Program-made: the position numbers and the translations under genes
Notes under the pieces: model-generated
Told to the model about the DNA's origin: nothing
The model's database searches: none
What the model saw: the letters and a program-made list of their open reading frames with translations, nothing else
Origin: Alphaproteobacteria bacterium
GTDB lineage: Bacteria > Pseudomonadota > Alphaproteobacteria > Bin95
Assembly (NCBI GenBank): GCA_963665325.3
Contig: OZ224045.1
Span: forward strand, 1,056,001 to 1,120,000
DNA length: 64,000 nucleotides
Direction: 5' to 3'
In this document: piece by piece, positions 48,630-55,446 of the stretch
How the letters are laid out: each line of letters opens with the position of its first letter
Position numbering within the stretch: the stretch's first letter is position 1

Positions 48630-48818
48630 AGTGCCTGGGAGCCTGAGCCCCACCCTGTCAACGGCGCGGTCGCCTGGGGCCGGATCGCTTCACTCACCCA
48701 GACTGTTGTTAAGCGTGGAAGATTGACCCCCTGTTGGGGGTTATCGGCGTCCAAAATTGACCCCCCATGGATTGTGTCCATGAACACGCCCTGTCGTTGG
48801 ACGGACGGGGTGGGGGAG

Positions 48819-50333
48819 ATGCTGGTTGTGGAGACGATAGCGCGGATCCGTCGGGATCATCTGGTGAAGGGCGTTCCGATCAAGAAGCTGGCGCGGGATT
48901 TGAGGGTTTCGAAGAACACGATACGCAAGGTGGTTCGGGGCGATACGACCTCGCACAGCTATGAGCGCAAGATCCAGCCGATGCCGAAGCTTGGGCCTTG
49001 GGTGGCAGAGCTTGAGCGCCAGCTGGAGGCCAACGAGAAGAAGAAGCGCCGGGATCGCCTGTCCCTGCTGCAGATCCATGAGGACCTTGGCGAGCTGGGC
49101 TACAAGGGCGGCTATGACGCGGTCCGGCGCTACGCCAGGGCGTGGCGGCGCCGACGCCGTCTGTTATCGCCGTCGCAGGCCTATGTGCCGCTGATCTTCG
49201 ATCCGGGCGAGGCCTACCAGTTCGACTGGAGCCACGAGTATGCGCGTCTGGCGGGAGCGACGACCAAGGTGAAGGCGGCGCACATGCGGCTGTGCCACAG
49301 CCGCATGTATCTGGTGCAGATCTTTCCCCGCGAGAGCCAGGAGATGGTCTTTGAGGCGCACGAGCGTGCCTTCCGCTTCTTCGGCGGGGTCTGCCGACGG
49401 GGCATCTACGACAACATGAAGACGGCGGTGAACACGATCTTCGTCGGCAAGGAGCGTGCCTACAACCGCCGCTTCCAGGAGATGTGCTCGCACCATCTGG
49501 TGGAGCCAGTGGCGTGCACGCCAGGGGCGGGCTGGGAGAAGGGGCAGGTTGAGAAGCAGGTGGGAGACCTTCGCGGGCGTCTGTTCGCGCGCAGCCCGCG
49601 GGGCCGCTCCTACACCGAGATCAACGAGTGGCTGATGGATCGGTGCATCGAGGAGGCCAGGAAGCAGCCGCATCCGACGATCGAGGGCAAGACGGTGTGG
49701 CAGGTATTCGAGGAGGAGCGGCCCTTCCTGATGGCATACCGCGGTCCCTTCGACGGCTTCCATGCCAGCGAGGTGTCAGTCTCGAAGACCTGCCTGGTGC
49801 GCTTCGACAACAACCAGTACAGCGTCTCTGCCCGCGCGGTGGGACGGCCGGTGGACGTGCGGGCCTATGCCGAGCGGATCGTCATCCGCCAGGACGGCGA
49901 GATCGTCGCCGAGCATCCCCGGAGCTTCGGGCGCGGTCGGTTCGTCTACGATCCGTGGCATTACGTGCCGATCCTGACGAGGAAGCCCGGCGCACTGAGG
50001 AACGGCGCACCCTTCAAGGACTGGCAGTTGCCCAACGCGCTGGGCCGCCTGCGAACCCGGCTCGCCGGCCACGACGACGGCGACCGGCAGTTCGTCAAGA
50101 TCCTCGCGGCGGTGCTGGAGGACGGGCTGGAGGCGGTCGAGGCGGCCTGCGCCGAGGCGCTCGCCTGCGGCGCCTGCAGCGCCGACGTCGTGCTCAACAT
50201 CCTCGCCCGGCAGCGCCAGCCGGCACCGCCGGCAATCATCCCGACGCCCGAGGGCCTGAAGCTCCGCCACCAGCCGGTGGCCGACTGTCAGCGCTACGAC
50301 AGCCTGAGGGAGGCCGGTCATGGAGCGTCATGA
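48819..50333 (+). CDS. istA: IS21 transposase
   Basis: [33 protein letters not shown]. Confidence 0.93.
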
Positions 50334-51048
50334 TGTGCTGGAGATGATGACCCAGCTGAAGCTCGCAGGCATGCGAGCCGCCTATGACGACATCCTCGCC
50401 GACGGGCTCAAGCGCCGTCATCCGGTGCAGCAGATCATCGGTACGCTGCTGCAGGTCGAGATCGCCGACAAGAGGGCACGCTCGATCAAGTACCAGATGG
50501 CGTCCGCCAAGCTGCCCACGGCCAAGGAACTGGCCGACTTCGACTTCGCCGGCTCGCCGGTCAACGAGCCCCTGATCCAGGAGCTCGCCGGCGGCGGCTT
50601 CCTCGAGGGCCAGCGCAACATCGTCCTGGTCGGCGGCACCGGCACCGGCAAGACCCATCTCGCCGTCGCCGTCGCGCGCTCCTGCATCCGCAAGGGCGCC
50701 CGTGGCCGCTGCTACAACGTCGTCGACCTGGTGAACCACCTCGAGGCCGAACTCCGTGCCGGGCGCCAGGGCCGCACCGCAGACCAGCTCGTCCGACGCG
50801 ACTTCGTCATCCTCGACGAACTCGGCTACCTGCCCTTCGCCCAAGCCGGCGGACAGCTCCTCTTCCACCTCATGAGCCGGCTCTACGAGCGAACCTCGAT
50901 CGTCATCACCACCAACCTCGCCTTCGGCGAGTGGCCGTCCGTCTTCGGCGATCCCAAGATGACCACGGCGTTGCTCGATCGTCTCACCCACCATTGCGAG
51001 ATCATCGAGACCGGCAACGAGAGCTGGCGCTTCAAGAACCGCTCCTGA
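50320..51048 (+). CDS. istB: IS21 ATPase helper
   Basis: [34 protein letters not shown]. Confidence 0.95.
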
Positions 51049-51249
51049 CCCGCCGCCGGCCTCCCCTGCGGCCCGGTTGCCCCGGTGGGTCAACAGGGAC
51101 CCCCCACGCGGCTTCGCTCCGCGTAGCGTGAGACGCTACACGAAGCCGCGCGGGTCCCCCCTATTGACTACCGGGACAACCTCCACCGTGCCTCTCAGGG
51201 GGTCAATTTTGCACGCCGATAGGGGGTCATTATTGAAAGCCGATTGACA

Positions 51250-52327
51250 GCCATGTCAGCACCGCCCGCTCGCCGACCTCGAACGGTCGCGAAATTCCGC
51301 CGCCGGCGTTCGGCCGCGAGACCCTCACCACAGCCTCGGGCCCCGCGGCGATACGGACCCCGTAGATCGACAGCCCGCCGCGGTAGCTGACTTCCTCCAC
51401 CTGTTCCGCAAGCCGGTTGGAGACGGCCATCCGGGGTGGCTCCTCCCCCGGCCGGGCGATGGCGATTGTCTCCGGCCGGATCGCGAGCCAGACGGCCTGC
51501 CCGCCCGGAATGCCGGGCGCCTTGCCCGCCGCCAGGCACGCACCCAACGACGATGCCTCGATCTCGAACGTCCCGTCGCCGGTCCGGCGGCGCGAACCGG
51601 CGATCAGGTTGACGGCGCCGATGAAGCCGGCGGTGAAGCGGTCGGCCGGACGTTCGTAGAGTTCGGCCGGCCGCGCCGTCTGTCGGATCCTGCCGCCTTC
51701 CATGACCGCCACGCGGTCCGCCATGGACAGCGCCTCTTCCCGGTCGTGGGTCACGAGCACGAAGGCGATGCCGACGGTCTCCCTGAGGCGGACGAGCTCG
51801 AAGCGCATCTGCTCGCGCAAGGGCGCGTCCAGGGCCGAGAGCGGCTCGTCCAGCAGCAGCGCCCTCGGCCGCTTGACGAGCGCCCTCGCCAGCGCGACCC
51901 GCTGGCGCTCTCCGCCGGAGAGCCGGTCCGGCCTCCGGCTCCCGTAGCCGCCGAGTGCAACCAGCTCGAGCGCCTCCGCCGCCCGGGAGCGCGCTTCCCC
52001 CCGTCCCACGCCCGACGCCCGCAACCCGTAGGCCACATTGTCGAGCGCCGAGAGGTGCGGGAACAGCGCATAGGACTGGAAGACCAGGTTGACCGGGCGG
52101 CGGTTCGCCGGCTCGAAAGTCAGGTCCCACCCGTCGATGAAGACCGATCCGGCATCGGGATGCTCGAGGCCCGCCAGCATCCTGAGCACCGTCGTCTTCC
52201 CGCAGCCCGAGGGGCCGAGCAGCGCAAAGAATTCGCCCGCGCGGATTTCCAGGCTCACACCCCGAACCGCGTCTATGGCGCCGAAACGCTTTTCGAGGCC
52301 CGTCGCGCAGATGACCGGCGCCGTCAC
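51250..52327 (-). CDS. polyamine ABC transporter ATPase (PotA/PotG-like), last residues clipped by IS21
   Basis: GPSGCGKTT, VFQSYALFPH, LSGGERQR, LLDEP, VTHD; TOBE domain runs into the IS21 right end. Confidence 0.8.
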
Positions 52328-52815
52328 AGGAAACCCTCTCGGAACCGCCAGTTCCTGAAGCCGAGGGCAAGCACCGTGGCGGCTGCCGTAACCGCAACCA
52401 GCACGGTCGAGGCGGCGTTGACCTCGGGCGTCACCGAGAAACGGACCATGGAATAGACCTTGACCGGGAAGGTGACCGTGCCAGGCCCCGAGGTGAAGAA
52501 GGTGATGACGAAATCGTCCAGCGACAGGATGAAGGCCAGCAGCGCGCCTGCCACGAGCCCGGGGCGCATATGCGGGACGACCGTGTCGCGGAGCGCCGCC
52601 CAGGGGCCCGCCCCGAGATCGCGCGCCGCCTCTTCCAAATCGCGGTTGAACCCTGCCAGCCGGGCACGGATCACGACCGCGACGAATGGAAAGGCGAAGG
52701 AGACATGCGCGACCCCGATACGCGAGAGGTTGAGCGGCCAGGGCAGGTCATCGGGCCAGCCGATGCGGGAAAAGAAGACCAGCATCGCCACGCCCATGCA
52801 GATTTCCGGAATCAC
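52324..52815 (-). pseudogene. 3' half of a polyamine ABC permease (PotC/PotI-like)
   Basis: starts mid-protein at VIPEICMG; LEEAARDLGA, SLDDFVITFF, TPEVNA. Confidence 0.8.
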
Positions 52816-53061
52816 GAAGTATCGACCAACGGCATGGAAGCCTTGTGGAGCCTCTTCAAGCGCTCATACCACGGCACGTTCCACAAGCTGTCGCAGAAGC
52901 ACCGCGTTCGCTATGTGCGAGAGTTCGCTGGACGCCAGAATATCCGCGATATGGACACCATTGACATGATGCGCGTCCTCGTGCGCGGCATGGCCGGCAA
53001 GCGGTTGCGCTACCGCGACCTCATCGCCGATAATGGACTACCAAGCGGAGCGAGAGGATGA
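52816..53061 (+). pseudogene. IS1595-family transposase C-terminal fragment
   Basis: TNGMEALWSLFKRSYHGTFHKLSQKH..RYV.EF..R.N...GKRLRY.DL. Confidence 0.82.
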
Positions 53062-53885: not shown

Positions 53886-54116
53886 CTAGTGGGGTTCCCG
53901 ACTCGCAGTCAACGCACTGACATTACCGGATACACGGAAGAACGAGTCGAAAGTCGCCCGTCCGCGAACACGCCACGTCCTGAAAGCCTCCTCCAGCAGA
54001 CGGCCGGCCTCAGGGTCATAGGGGTAGAAGGATGCGGCGAAGCCCCACAAGTCCACCGGGCCGTTCGCTTCGTCCAGTGCCTCGGCAAGACGCGACAGAA
54101 GATGTTCAAGGGTCAT
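53886..54116 (-). CDS. hypothetical protein (76 aa)
   Basis: strong AAGGAGGT RBS 5 nt upstream of the ATG. Confidence 0.55.
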   Translation of the reverse strand: MTLEHLLSRLAEALDEANGPVDLWGFAASFYPYDPEAGRLLEEAFRTWRVRGRATFDSFFRVSGNVSALTASREPH

Positions 54117-54177
54117 GGCGACCTCCTTGATACGGAGGCCGATTGACGCTCCGGTTCGCCCGCGCTATGCAGCGTAG

Positions 54178-54257
54178 CAACGTCGTTGTCCGCTTCCGGC
54201 CGCGAAACCAGCGGGCCCAAAGAGCCAGCCCGATAGCACGGTCTGGCTCTTTGTGCG
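54178..54257 (+). ncRNA. candidate antisense small RNA
   Basis: TTGACG-17-TATGCA promoter-like site upstream; ends in hairpin CAAAGAGCCAG...CTGGCTCTTTG. Confidence 0.35.
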
Positions 54258-54347
54258 TCTAGAAGAAATCTAGAGTGTCGTGCGGCAGGCCGTCAATCTA
54301 CGCAGCGTCTGCTTGACACGCCTGTCTGCGCAAGCGCAGGCTTCCTC

Positions 54348-54472
54348 TTGCACACATCCAGCGGCGCCCCTGTCGGGCCGCTCGCTGAATAGAATAGCCT
54401 CGCGAGTCGTCAGGGTAGCTCCCTGGCGCGGGTGAATAGGCGGGGCCTCCGCAATTCTCTGGATGTGTGCAA
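54348..54472 (+). ncRNA. candidate structured RNA closed by a perfect 14-bp stem
   Basis: TTGCACACATCCAG (54348-61) / CTGGATGTGTGCAA (54459-72), several internal hairpins, TTGACA at 54313-18. Confidence 0.4.
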
Positions 54473-54524
54473 CGGCCCGACGCCAGCGGGGCCGCGCTGG
54501 GCCATATGCGAAGGCACTGGACCT

Positions 54525-54941
54525 ATGAGAAAACCGACAATCGCCGTTGTCGCTGCGATTTTGCTTAGCCTTGCAGCCGCGCCCGTAACGGCGGCCACCA
54601 AGTGCCGGGGTGACTATGACGAGCGCCGGAAATGCGAGCAGGAGAAGACGGACCGGCTCATCGTGCGTTTGGAGGCCAAGACGAAAGCCCTGAAAGGCGT
54701 CGAAGAATGTGCGCGTCGGGTACTTGTGATCTCGGCCACCGTCGCCGGCGCCTCGATGGGGGTGCGCCCCGAGGCAATCCCCGTGTTGGTCAAGAACCGA
54801 CGGCAAGAGATGGACAAGCGCTTCAACGCGGCGCTGGAAAAGCCGGTCGAACTACTGGCAAGCATTCTTCAGGGACTGATCTTGGTTCCCGACGATCAGG
54901 AGCACCAGATCATTGATGACTGCCTTGCGTCTCTGAAATAG
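54525..54941 (+). CDS. hypothetical secreted protein
   Basis: signal peptide MRKPTIAVVAAILLSLAAAPVTA; four Cys. Confidence 0.6.
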   Translation: MRKPTIAVVAAILLSLAAAPVTAATKCRGDYDERRKCEQEKTDRLIVRLEAKTKALKGVEECARRVLVISATVAGASMGVRPEAIPVLVKNRRQEMDKRFNAALEKPVELLASILQGLILVPDDQEHQIIDDCLASLK

Positions 54942-54975: not shown

Positions 54976-55446
54976 GTGACCCGCCAACACCGTGAGACCA
55001 TCATGCAGAATTCATACGAAGCGGCAGCCAAGTCCGCCCAGCAGTTCTACGACGTCGAAGCAACTTGGATGCGGCATATACTGTTGATCGCATCAAGCGC
55101 TTTGACGCTTCTCGTTATCCTGAATCAAGACATTCCCGAGCGAGATTGGCCTCGCGGTTTTCTCGCCGCTGCTTGGGCACTTCTGGGCACCGGTATCGTG
55201 GCAGGAGGCGTGGCCTCCCATGCAACGGTAAACGTCTCGCGAAGTCTTGCAATCCAGCAAGGGTTAGCTCTCGTAGAGGAACTTCGTACTGGCCGGCATG
55301 CGCTGCCAACTCCTGTGCTTGAAGAAAGAACCTATAGGGTGAGCAGGAAGATAATGGTGACCGCCCTGATCGGCGCCGTGATCTGTCTGACTGGATATGG
55401 AATGACCACGCTGCTAGGCGATGCCAAAATCTCTGCTGCACCGTAG
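54976..55446 (+). CDS. hypothetical three-TM membrane protein
   Basis: three hydrophobic segments; follows the previous ORF on the same strand. Confidence 0.6.
   Translation: MTRQHRETIMQNSYEAAAKSAQQFYDVEATWMRHILLIASSALTLLVILNQDIPERDWPRGFLAAAWALLGTGIVAGGVASHATVNVSRSLAIQQGLALVEELRTGRHALPTPVLEERTYRVSRKIMVTALIGAVICLTGYGMTTLLGDAKISAAP

Follow-up and report, generated by a model that had tools for sequence, protein, structure and literature searches.

We analysed a 64,000-nucleotide stretch of DNA (the window) from an Alphaproteobacteria bacterium of the GTDB lineage Bin95 (assembly GCA_963665325.3, contig OZ224045.1, positions 1,056,001 to 1,120,000 of the forward strand). It carries a 125-nt element closed by a perfect 14-bp inverted repeat, with arms at 54348-54361 and 54459-54472 and 97 nt between them. 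An initial annotation, made from the sequence alone, had pointed out this repeat and, in front of it, a TTGACA box separated by 18 nt from a CAGGCT box; all of these are present as described. We propose that the element belongs to an undescribed class of cis-acting structured 5' leader RNAs of about 145 nt that work as two-state translational switches, a reading that we consider somewhat probable though far from secure. It would be a new class within a known kind, that of structured cis-regulatory leaders and riboswitch candidates. The features of the locus are as follows, with helices named P1, P2, P2a and P3, the linker named J3', a small downstream hairpin named H, and SD standing for Shine-Dalgarno.

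54313..54318, plus strand: -35 box TTGACA, read from the sequence and matched family-wide by a TTG 33-35 nt upstream of the motif
54337..54342, plus strand: weak -10 box CAGGCT, 18-nt spacer from TTGACA; the predicted transcription start falls on the first bases of P1
54348..54361, plus strand: P1 5' arm TTGCACACATCCAG, supported by covariation of all 14 modelled P1 pairs and by own- versus cross-arm duplex energies
54372..54380, plus strand: 5' half of the switch element, GUCGGGCCG, from RNAalifold; its partner is 54473-54481 or, locally, CCC at 54367-54369
54381..54386, plus strand: P2 5' strand CUCGCU; partner 54439-54444, with compensatory C-G / U-A changes
54387..54396, plus strand: internal-loop strand GAAUAGAAUA, family consensus GAAUAsAAcA, in near-invariant columns
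54397..54433, plus strand: P2a (GCC 54397-99 with GGU 54431-33) around the P3 hairpin
54408..54428, plus strand: P3 hairpin CGUCAGGG-UAGCU-CCCUGGCG; its pairs covary and its loop is kept as u-n-G-C-u
54434..54444, plus strand: loop strand GAAUA followed by the P2 3' strand GGCGGG, both conserved
54445..54458, plus strand: J3' linker GCCUCCGCAAUUCU, pyrimidine-rich and anti-SD-like in sequence
54459..54472, plus strand: P1 3' arm CTGGATGTGTGCAA, supported by the inverted repeat, covariation and duplex energies
54473..54494, plus strand: conserved CGGCCCGAC (54473-54481), the 3' half of the switch element and also the 5' arm of hairpin H
54510..54527, plus strand: SD-like GAAGG (54510-14) and ATG (54525-27), from the sequence
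54525..54941, plus strand: downstream gene 1, 138 amino acids, with a signal-peptide-like N-terminal segment and no Pfam match
54976..55446, plus strand: downstream gene 2, 156 amino acids, hydrophobic, no Pfam match

As an RNA, the 125-nt element has a predicted folding energy of -62.9 kcal/mol, compared with a mean of -48.1 for dinucleotide shuffles (z = -4.15; none of 200 shuffles reached this stability). At -59.4 kcal/mol the opposite strand comes close, and the strand cannot be assigned from folding energy by itself. When the window copy was folded without its 5' arm, the long-range pairing between 54372-54380 and 54473-54481 was present in the minimum free energy (MFE) structure.

The element is one of many. 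The genome that holds the window (5 contigs, 5.58 Mb, 67% G+C, scored 100% complete) contains seven further copies detectable by BLASTN with the region, at 72-78% identity. From an alignment of these eight copies (A3), we built a covariance model (R1), which matched 13 places in the same genome, eight of them at 124-154 bits and five at 40-69 bits. Four of the five weak matches lie in a segment that is duplicated between contigs C1 and C3 (G000 C1:804391-813454 and C3:1328964-1337944). Both places carry the same two weak leaders at a spacing of ~8.9 kb and in opposite orientation, and one of them sits at a contig end; this is either a duplicated segment of ~9-10 kb or an assembly repeat. One leader of this segment (L020) runs straight into a coding sequence resembling glycosyltransferase family 25 (GT25).

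Searching related genomes with R1 gave matches in 15 of the 16 other congeneric genomes (3-11 matches each), in none of 20 genomes of two sister genera and in one of 24 genomes from other families of the class (G049, with three copies); the model search at the order level covered the same 37 genomes as that at the family level and gave the same result. For a wider scan, we used an exact pattern in IUPAC code that spans two conserved core segments. It had at least 99 matches in a species-representative genome collection, and all 99 listed were records titled as metagenome-assembled genomes (MAGs). We took 80 of the genome loci for a model search, and every one of them held a full-length match (80 of 80; 81 hits in total, at 40-145 bits).

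The resulting family provides the evidence for a structured RNA. The sequence of P1 is different in every copy, yet the arms stay complementary. The predicted duplex energy averages -27.8 kcal/mol for arms of the same copy and -11.5 kcal/mol when arms are combined with those of other copies, and in 104 of 112 distinct copies the own pair outdid every one of 15 cross pairs; this test is independent of the model alignment. In that alignment (A5, 81 rows), which was fitted to the model and so favours the model structure, 94.8% of the cells hold standard pairs (76.7% after shuffling of columns), and both partners change in 26 of the 39 pairs. The covariation score is 0.532, compared with 0.181 in shuffles; 0 of 500 shuffles reached the observed score, and sliding the 3' partner by 1-3 columns lowered it to 0.081 or less. 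Covariation among homologues, which the initial annotation had proposed as a check, supports the structure. The paired columns, counted without the two outermost P1 columns, in which C often stands opposite A, comprise 2688 Watson-Crick pairs, 311 G-U pairs, 33 A-C combinations and 59 others. This excess of G-U over A-C indicates that the structure is selected as RNA, and on the gene-sense strand.

The common architecture consists of a variable helix, P1, ranging from 11 to 19 bp, around a near-invariant core made up of P2, an asymmetric internal loop (GAAUAsAAcA opposite GAAUA), P2a and the P3 hairpin. Its 5' part reads P1 5' arm, CcCg, GuCGGGyyg, P2 CcyGCy, GAAUAsAAcA, P2a GCC and P3 (loop u-n-G-C-u), and its 3' part reads P2a' GGc, gAAuA, P2' gGCgGG, a pyrimidine-rich J3' of ~10 nt, the P1 3' arm and (a)aC-GGCCCGgCrcC. 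Four short hairpins inside the repeat had been described from the window copy. One of them, CGTCAGGG-TAGCT-CCCTGGCG in DNA letters (54408-54428), is P3 and is kept throughout the family; the other three (GCGGC/GCCGC, CTCGC/GCGAG and GCGG/CCGC) are specific to this copy and are replaced in the consensus by the stack of P2, internal loop, P2a and P3 together with a long-range pairing. The cloverleaf of four hairpins is therefore abandoned, as only one hairpin is conserved.

The long-range pairing, detected with RNAalifold, joins a 9-nt core segment, GYCGGGYYK, to a conserved CGGCCCGRC located directly 3' of P1. Of 106 copies, 93 can form all nine pairs and a further 12 can form eight; in A5 this helix is 98.3% paired. 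Its last pair varies in a compensating manner: a U on the 5' side faces A in eight cases and G in three, while a G on the 5' side mostly faces C. In one locus (L055), the P1 3' arm and the segment of hairpin H are tandemly duplicated downstream of the leader.

The position of the motif relative to genes is equally regular. Of the 112 distinct copies, 73 have a TTG 33-35 nt upstream of the model start, and 45 match TTGACA there in at least five of six positions. With a 17-nt spacer, the -10 box would occupy positions -11 to -6, where A is found at -10 in 63 and T at -6 in 69 of the 112. From this geometry, transcription should begin within the first few bases of P1, which lends family-wide support to the start near the first base of the stem that had been suggested for the window copy. 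Each copy is thus predicted to have its own sigma-70-type promoter, with a transcript starting at the base of P1. On the other side, a start codon with an SD follows the model end by 10-59 nt in 80 of 112 copies and by no more than 200 nt in 92 of 112; as the model ends 16 nt past P1, the start codon is ~30-75 nt from P1. The earlier description of a discrete, promoter-fronted structured RNA serving as leader of the downstream gene for a secreted protein agrees well with these findings.

One locus (L251; G007:C125:3800-5700, minus strand 1760-1100) holds two such units, in that a second promoter and leader start 13 nt past the SD and ATG of the first leader. It looks like a cassette of promoter, leader and gene inserted into the start of another such unit. 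We considered a tandem riboswitch for this locus and rejected it, since the arrangement is a nested second promoter plus leader and not a tandem aptamer.

Downstream of P1, we observed pairings that would compete with it. Hairpin H is small and G+C-rich, and its 5' arm is the conserved GGCCCGRC. In many copies, H is followed by a stretch that resembles the copy's own P1 5' arm (the mimic) and extends into the SD, such that the P1 3' arm and J3' can pair with mimic and SD in a long alternative hairpin. The clearest example is L036, whose perfect competing helix of 18 bp ends in CAGGUAAA right before the start codon. The competing pairing joins UUUUCCUA to UAGGAAAA in L088 and UCCUGC to GCAGGA in L102; an SD-covering competing helix is likewise found in L082, L052, L077 and L091, and L109 behaves alike. 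Across the family, pairing of the P1 3' arm with the downstream region of the same copy was stronger than each of 15 cross pairs in 21 of 112 copies (~7 expected) and stronger than the median cross pair in 78. The same test applied to the P1 5' arm gave no signal (7 of 112 and 57 of 112). Measured against 30 cross pairs, the competing pairing has z < -2 in 12 copies and z > 2 in one.

Partition-function folds of 80 leaders point in the same direction. The mean predicted probability that the SD is unpaired falls from 0.49 when P1 is enforced to 0.30 when the 5' arm is blocked, and the predicted SD is more open with P1 in 41 of 80 leaders and less open in three. Its predicted pairing to J3' plus the 3' arm is 0.38 with the leader's own tail and 0.20 with chimeric tails.

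We next describe the genes behind the leader. For each copy, we took the longest open reading frame (ORF) that starts no more than 260 nt downstream, which yielded 113 distinct ORFs, and assigned Pfam families at E <= 0.001. The most abundant family was Glyco_transf_25 (GT25; 10 of 113), followed by the TbpB_B_D barrel of surface lipoproteins (6 of 113, two of them above the curated cut-off), CsgG/LpoB (3 of 113), Rhodanese lipoproteins (3 of 113), astacin or matrixin metalloproteases (3 of 113, one with RTX repeats), outer-membrane protein beta-barrel/Opacity domains (2 of 113) and a staphylococcal-type secreted nuclease (2 of 113). Single cases include an inverse-autotransporter barrel, leucine-rich repeats (LRR), MORN, a dienelactone hydrolase and a BLIP-like domain, and there were a few non-envelope genes: a serine recombinase, helix-turn-helix regulators, T5orf172, GmrSD and DUF932.

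N-terminal features pointed the same way. Using SD-based starts, a lipobox-like N-terminus was found in 29 of 92 downstream proteins, compared with 22 of 1202 control genes of contig C1 judged by the same crude rules, and a hydrophobic N-terminal segment in 64 of 92, compared with 465 of 1202. The controlled genes are thus mainly surface lipoproteins, lipopolysaccharide/lipooligosaccharide (LPS/LOS) family-25 glycosyltransferases, outer-membrane proteins and secreted enzymes. The leader copies of the window's own genome, which are 70-78% identical, precede unrelated proteins, and the GT25 behind the leader of a MAG labelled Paracoccaceae is 48% identical to a GT25 of the window's genome. Judged by these comparisons, conservation is higher in the leader than in the genes that it precedes, and no gene is consistently adjacent to its copies.

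Together, these results present a conserved, covarying structured domain located on the gene strand between a predicted promoter and a start codon, as is expected of a riboswitch-type leader, and the leader probably switches translation of the downstream genes on and off. The downstream genes are heterogeneous, envelope or secreted, and do not point to one metabolite, as those of a metabolite riboswitch do. In the ON state that we propose, P1 and the core would be folded and the CGGCCCGRC tail would dock on the core segment GYCGGGYYK as a pseudoknot, leaving the ribosome-binding site free; a helix would enclose the 5' end and may in addition shield the mRNA. In the OFF state, the tail would instead form hairpin H, which would nucleate the long competing hairpin in which the P1 3' arm and J3' pair with the mimic and the SD region, and initiation would be blocked. 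An effector binding the conserved core and its invariant internal loops would set the balance by holding the docked state. It could be a small molecule or a protein, and either state could be the resting one.

Several observations weigh against such a switch. The competing helix is clear only in a minority of copies (z < -1 in 36 of 112). The state with P1 exceeds the fold with a blocked 5' arm in stability by 10.5 kcal/mol on average. Of the 80 leaders, 70 have P1 in their MFE structure and only nine the competing helix. A P1 of 14-19 bp is far longer than in typical riboswitches, and its opening is hard to account for. The window's own copy shows no distinct mimic or evident competing helix; its J3' (GCCUCC) could pair with GAAGGC at 54510-54515. 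Chimeric tails gave a predicted opening of the SD as well, in 80 of 240 cases, since the anti-SD character of J3' is generic. As the long-range pairing crosses P1, it would be either a pseudoknot or an alternative state. As for the genes, some longest-ORF calls in such high-GC DNA are surely wrong, 68 of the 113 ORFs have no Pfam family at the threshold used, and the downstream genes share a cellular location rather than a pathway and indicate no ligand. Lastly, we infer the transcription start, the existence of the RNA and any switching from sequence features.

Other explanations have to be weighed against the two-state leader. The invariant core could be recognised by a conserved RNA-binding protein, which these bacteria might also have in common, that represses or activates translation of the envelope and secretome genes, with no small molecule involved. 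Covariation and the ratio of G-U to A-C are equally expected of such an operator; a gene set united by location rather than pathway would sooner be expected of a regulon under the control of a protein or signal than of a metabolite riboswitch, and a protein or a helicase may open a very long P1 more easily than a ligand could tune it. We nonetheless regard this as rather unlikely: no candidate protein turned up, although no systematic search was made, no gene is consistently adjacent to the leader, and the many invariant unpaired nucleotides of the internal loops are equally typical of ligand pockets. Less likely still is a constitutive, non-sensing 5' module that protects from decay, fixes the translation level or acts as an RNA thermometer, and spreads with its promoter as an expression cassette. 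The transcript predicted to start inside P1, the thermodynamic dominance of P1 and the nested cassette of promoter and leader in L251 would all fit this explanation, which we consider improbable because a mere stabiliser needs neither a near-invariant core of 100 nt kept across phyla, nor a long-range pairing that covaries, nor a 3' arm that in each copy is complementary to its own SD region.

The remaining two alternatives detach the element from the gene behind it. Multi-copy small RNA (sRNA) families exist, and the motif, with a promoter of its own and a conserved hairpin after P1, might be an independent trans-acting sRNA that ends at hairpin H and lies upstream of genes by chance. This is very improbable given that in 80 of 112 copies a start codon on the same strand follows within the narrow range of 10-59 nt, and given the complementarity in many copies between the SD and the leader's own 3' arm; in the window, H is followed by no U-tract terminator, and a scan found no terminator-like site on the plus strand downstream of P1. 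Finally, we give hardly any credence to an element acting at the DNA level, be it a miniature inverted-repeat transposable element (MITE) or Correia-like repeat, an invertible promoter, a retron msr/msd or a phage immunity RNA, even though it would bring together the inverted repeats, the many dispersed copies and the insertion-sequence (IS) elements in which the window is rich. The initial annotation had linked many dispersed copies to a MITE, and dispersed copies do exist, as the 13 places in the genome attest; but it is the arms that differ and the interior that is conserved, the 3' side carries the conserved CGGCCCGRC in place of a target duplication, and orientation and spacing to start codons are fixed. 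For these reasons, we rejected the MITE or Correia-like repeat. An inverton was rejected because the promoter lies outside the repeat, upstream of its 5' arm, and G-U pairs far exceed A-C (311 and 33), the opposite orientation at the same locus not having been searched. The resemblance to retrons and phage immunity RNAs that had been noted for the closing stem did not hold up: no reverse transcriptase (RVT) was found in the 113 downstream ORFs or in the 21 ORFs of the window between 48.7 and 59.2 kb, no Rfam family matches, and the pattern had no match in viral contigs.

We compared the element with known RNA families. Rfam 15 gave no match at gathering score in the whole window, and within a 601-nt region around the element only chance-level hits that stay far below gathering score (Xoo2, E = 0.14; TCV_Pr, E = 1; MIR898, E = 4.8); it likewise gave nothing at the motif in 20 diverse loci. 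The Xoo2 sRNA match, upstream of the promoter at 54171-54255, reaches 20.5 bits against a gathering score of 45 and is probably due to chance. Mimicry of signal recognition particle RNA was considered and dropped, there being no Rfam match. ARAGORN found no tRNA or tmRNA gene in 54000-54800. The earlier statements that the element is not a tRNA and belongs to no recognised family therefore stand. A full-text literature search, at the level of search results and with supplements outside its scope, found no description of the motif.

Several known systems share some of its traits, as judged from their general descriptions and from the Rfam scans. The add adenine riboswitch of Vibrio vulnificus is a translational ON riboswitch. 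Like it, the leader lies in a 5' untranslated region and combines a conserved core with a variable P1, and its closing helix competes with a helix that pairs the P1 3' strand to the ribosome-binding region. In contrast to add and similar translational ON riboswitches, its P1 measures 11-19 bp rather than 4-8 bp, its core fold is another one, there is no sequence or Rfam relation, and its gene set is that of envelope and secretome, not of one pathway. The cyclic di-GMP (c-di-GMP)-II riboswitch forms a pseudoknot with its 3' tail and controls adhesins, pili and proteases in Clostridia. The leader resembles it in pairing a core segment with the 3' tail and in preceding heterogeneous genes for surface and secreted proteins, but it has no covariance-model match and the window's genome has no GGDEF domain. 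JUMPstart/ops elements, found in the leaders of RfaH-dependent LPS and surface operons, are short DNA and RNA-polymerase pause signals. They too are conserved leader elements ahead of genes for LPS and surface structures, whereas here the structure is large and covarying, the genes are mostly single, competition is at the level of the SD, and no Rfam family matches.

Correia elements and MITEs are, like the leader, multi-copy sequences of ~100-150 bp with inverted ends, often located upstream of genes, and the RNA hairpin could be an RNase III substrate; in MITEs the terminal repeats are kept and the interior varies. The present family is the reverse in this respect, with varying arms and an invariant interior, and differs also in the lack of target duplication, the fixed gene orientation and the tolerance of G-U pairs. 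Retron msr/msd, P4 CI and P1 C4 RNAs are likewise structured RNAs closed by an inverted repeat, but the leader has no phage context, reverse transcriptase or Rfam match to connect it with them.

The distribution of the leader is broad in phylogeny and apparently narrow in habitat. Among the matches listed, most MAG labels were Alphaproteobacteria; others were Gammaproteobacteria/Pseudomonadales, Gemmatimonadetes/Longimicrobiales, Bryobacterales/Acidobacteriota, Latescibacterota, Chloroflexota, Binatota, Opitutia and Rhodothermales, such that these labels span at least eight phyla. Several of the matching records are megabase-scale chromosomes, so mis-binning cannot explain all of this spread. 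In a search of 241 million metagenome records, 102 stretches matched the pattern, and 55 of them carry the prefixes MKWU01 (39), LXNI01 (9) and LXNJ01 (7). These three sets are sponge metagenomes, of Aplysina aerophoba, Sarcotragus foetidus and Petrosia ficiformis (PMC5099237). The seawater assembly of that study, LXNH, is absent among the 102 matches, its membership in the collection being unchecked. The remaining 47 matches are in record sets of the Joint Genome Institute (JGI), whose habitat labels are unverified. Plasmids gave no match in a megablast search with a 3.1-kb locus. The leader thus occurs in sponge-associated bacteria of many phyla, and its range, so far as covered by these scans, is apparently limited to the microbiomes of marine sponges.

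This habitat allows a more specific, and tentative, proposal, which is possible though on balance doubtful: the core might be the aptamer of a new riboswitch class that senses a signal specific to life within a sponge, a small molecule of the host or the microbial consortium. The leader would have spread horizontally through at least eight phyla of sponge microbiomes and would switch on a programme of surface and secreted proteins (surface lipoproteins, LOS glycosyltransferases, outer-membrane proteins, metalloproteases, nucleases and LRR proteins) shaping the symbiont's presentation to its host. We scanned the window's genome for nucleotide second-messenger enzymes. No GGDEF and no DAC domain was found in it, whereas control genomes gave matches to both; endogenous c-di-GMP and c-di-AMP were therefore ruled out as ligands in this genome. 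It does encode six class-III nucleotide cyclase domains, of which five lie in open frames ~620-635 amino acids long. Given these cyclases, cAMP or cGMP is a possible signal, and the cyclases are no evidence for either.

If the proposed class is real, it would be a new bacterial regulatory RNA whose sequence is kept across phyla more strongly than the genes behind it, with a regulon defined by the destination of the proteins, the cell surface and the outside, and not by a metabolic pathway. Cross-phylum conservation, apparent restriction to sponge microbiomes, a regulon defined by destination and a very long P1 make an unusual combination. It would also offer a handle on surface control in uncultured sponge symbionts, which must avoid being eaten by their filter-feeding host. 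For ligand hunting and structure determination, the leader provides a compact RNA of ~145 nt with a model strongly supported by covariation. Even without a ligand, a habitat-wide, horizontally shared expression leader is useful for genome annotation; most of the genes behind it are orphans.

Some loci carried further features of note. In L037 (G003:C3:1260705-1263851), tandem paralogous lipoprotein genes each have a divergent copy of the leader, and just 5' of the start codon lies a G-run, of 10 G in one gene and 7 G in the other, that could be prone to slippage. In three MAG loci from different phyla (L120, L126 and L129), tRNA genes lie ~100-900 nt from the leader. In the window itself, the surroundings of the leader (48723-53061) are rich in mobile-element debris: an IS21-type pair, with istA (Mu-transposase C-terminal and rve domains) at 48723-50333 and istB at 50320-51048, a truncated ABC permease on the minus strand at 52324-52815, and an IS1595 transposase fragment at 52570-53061.

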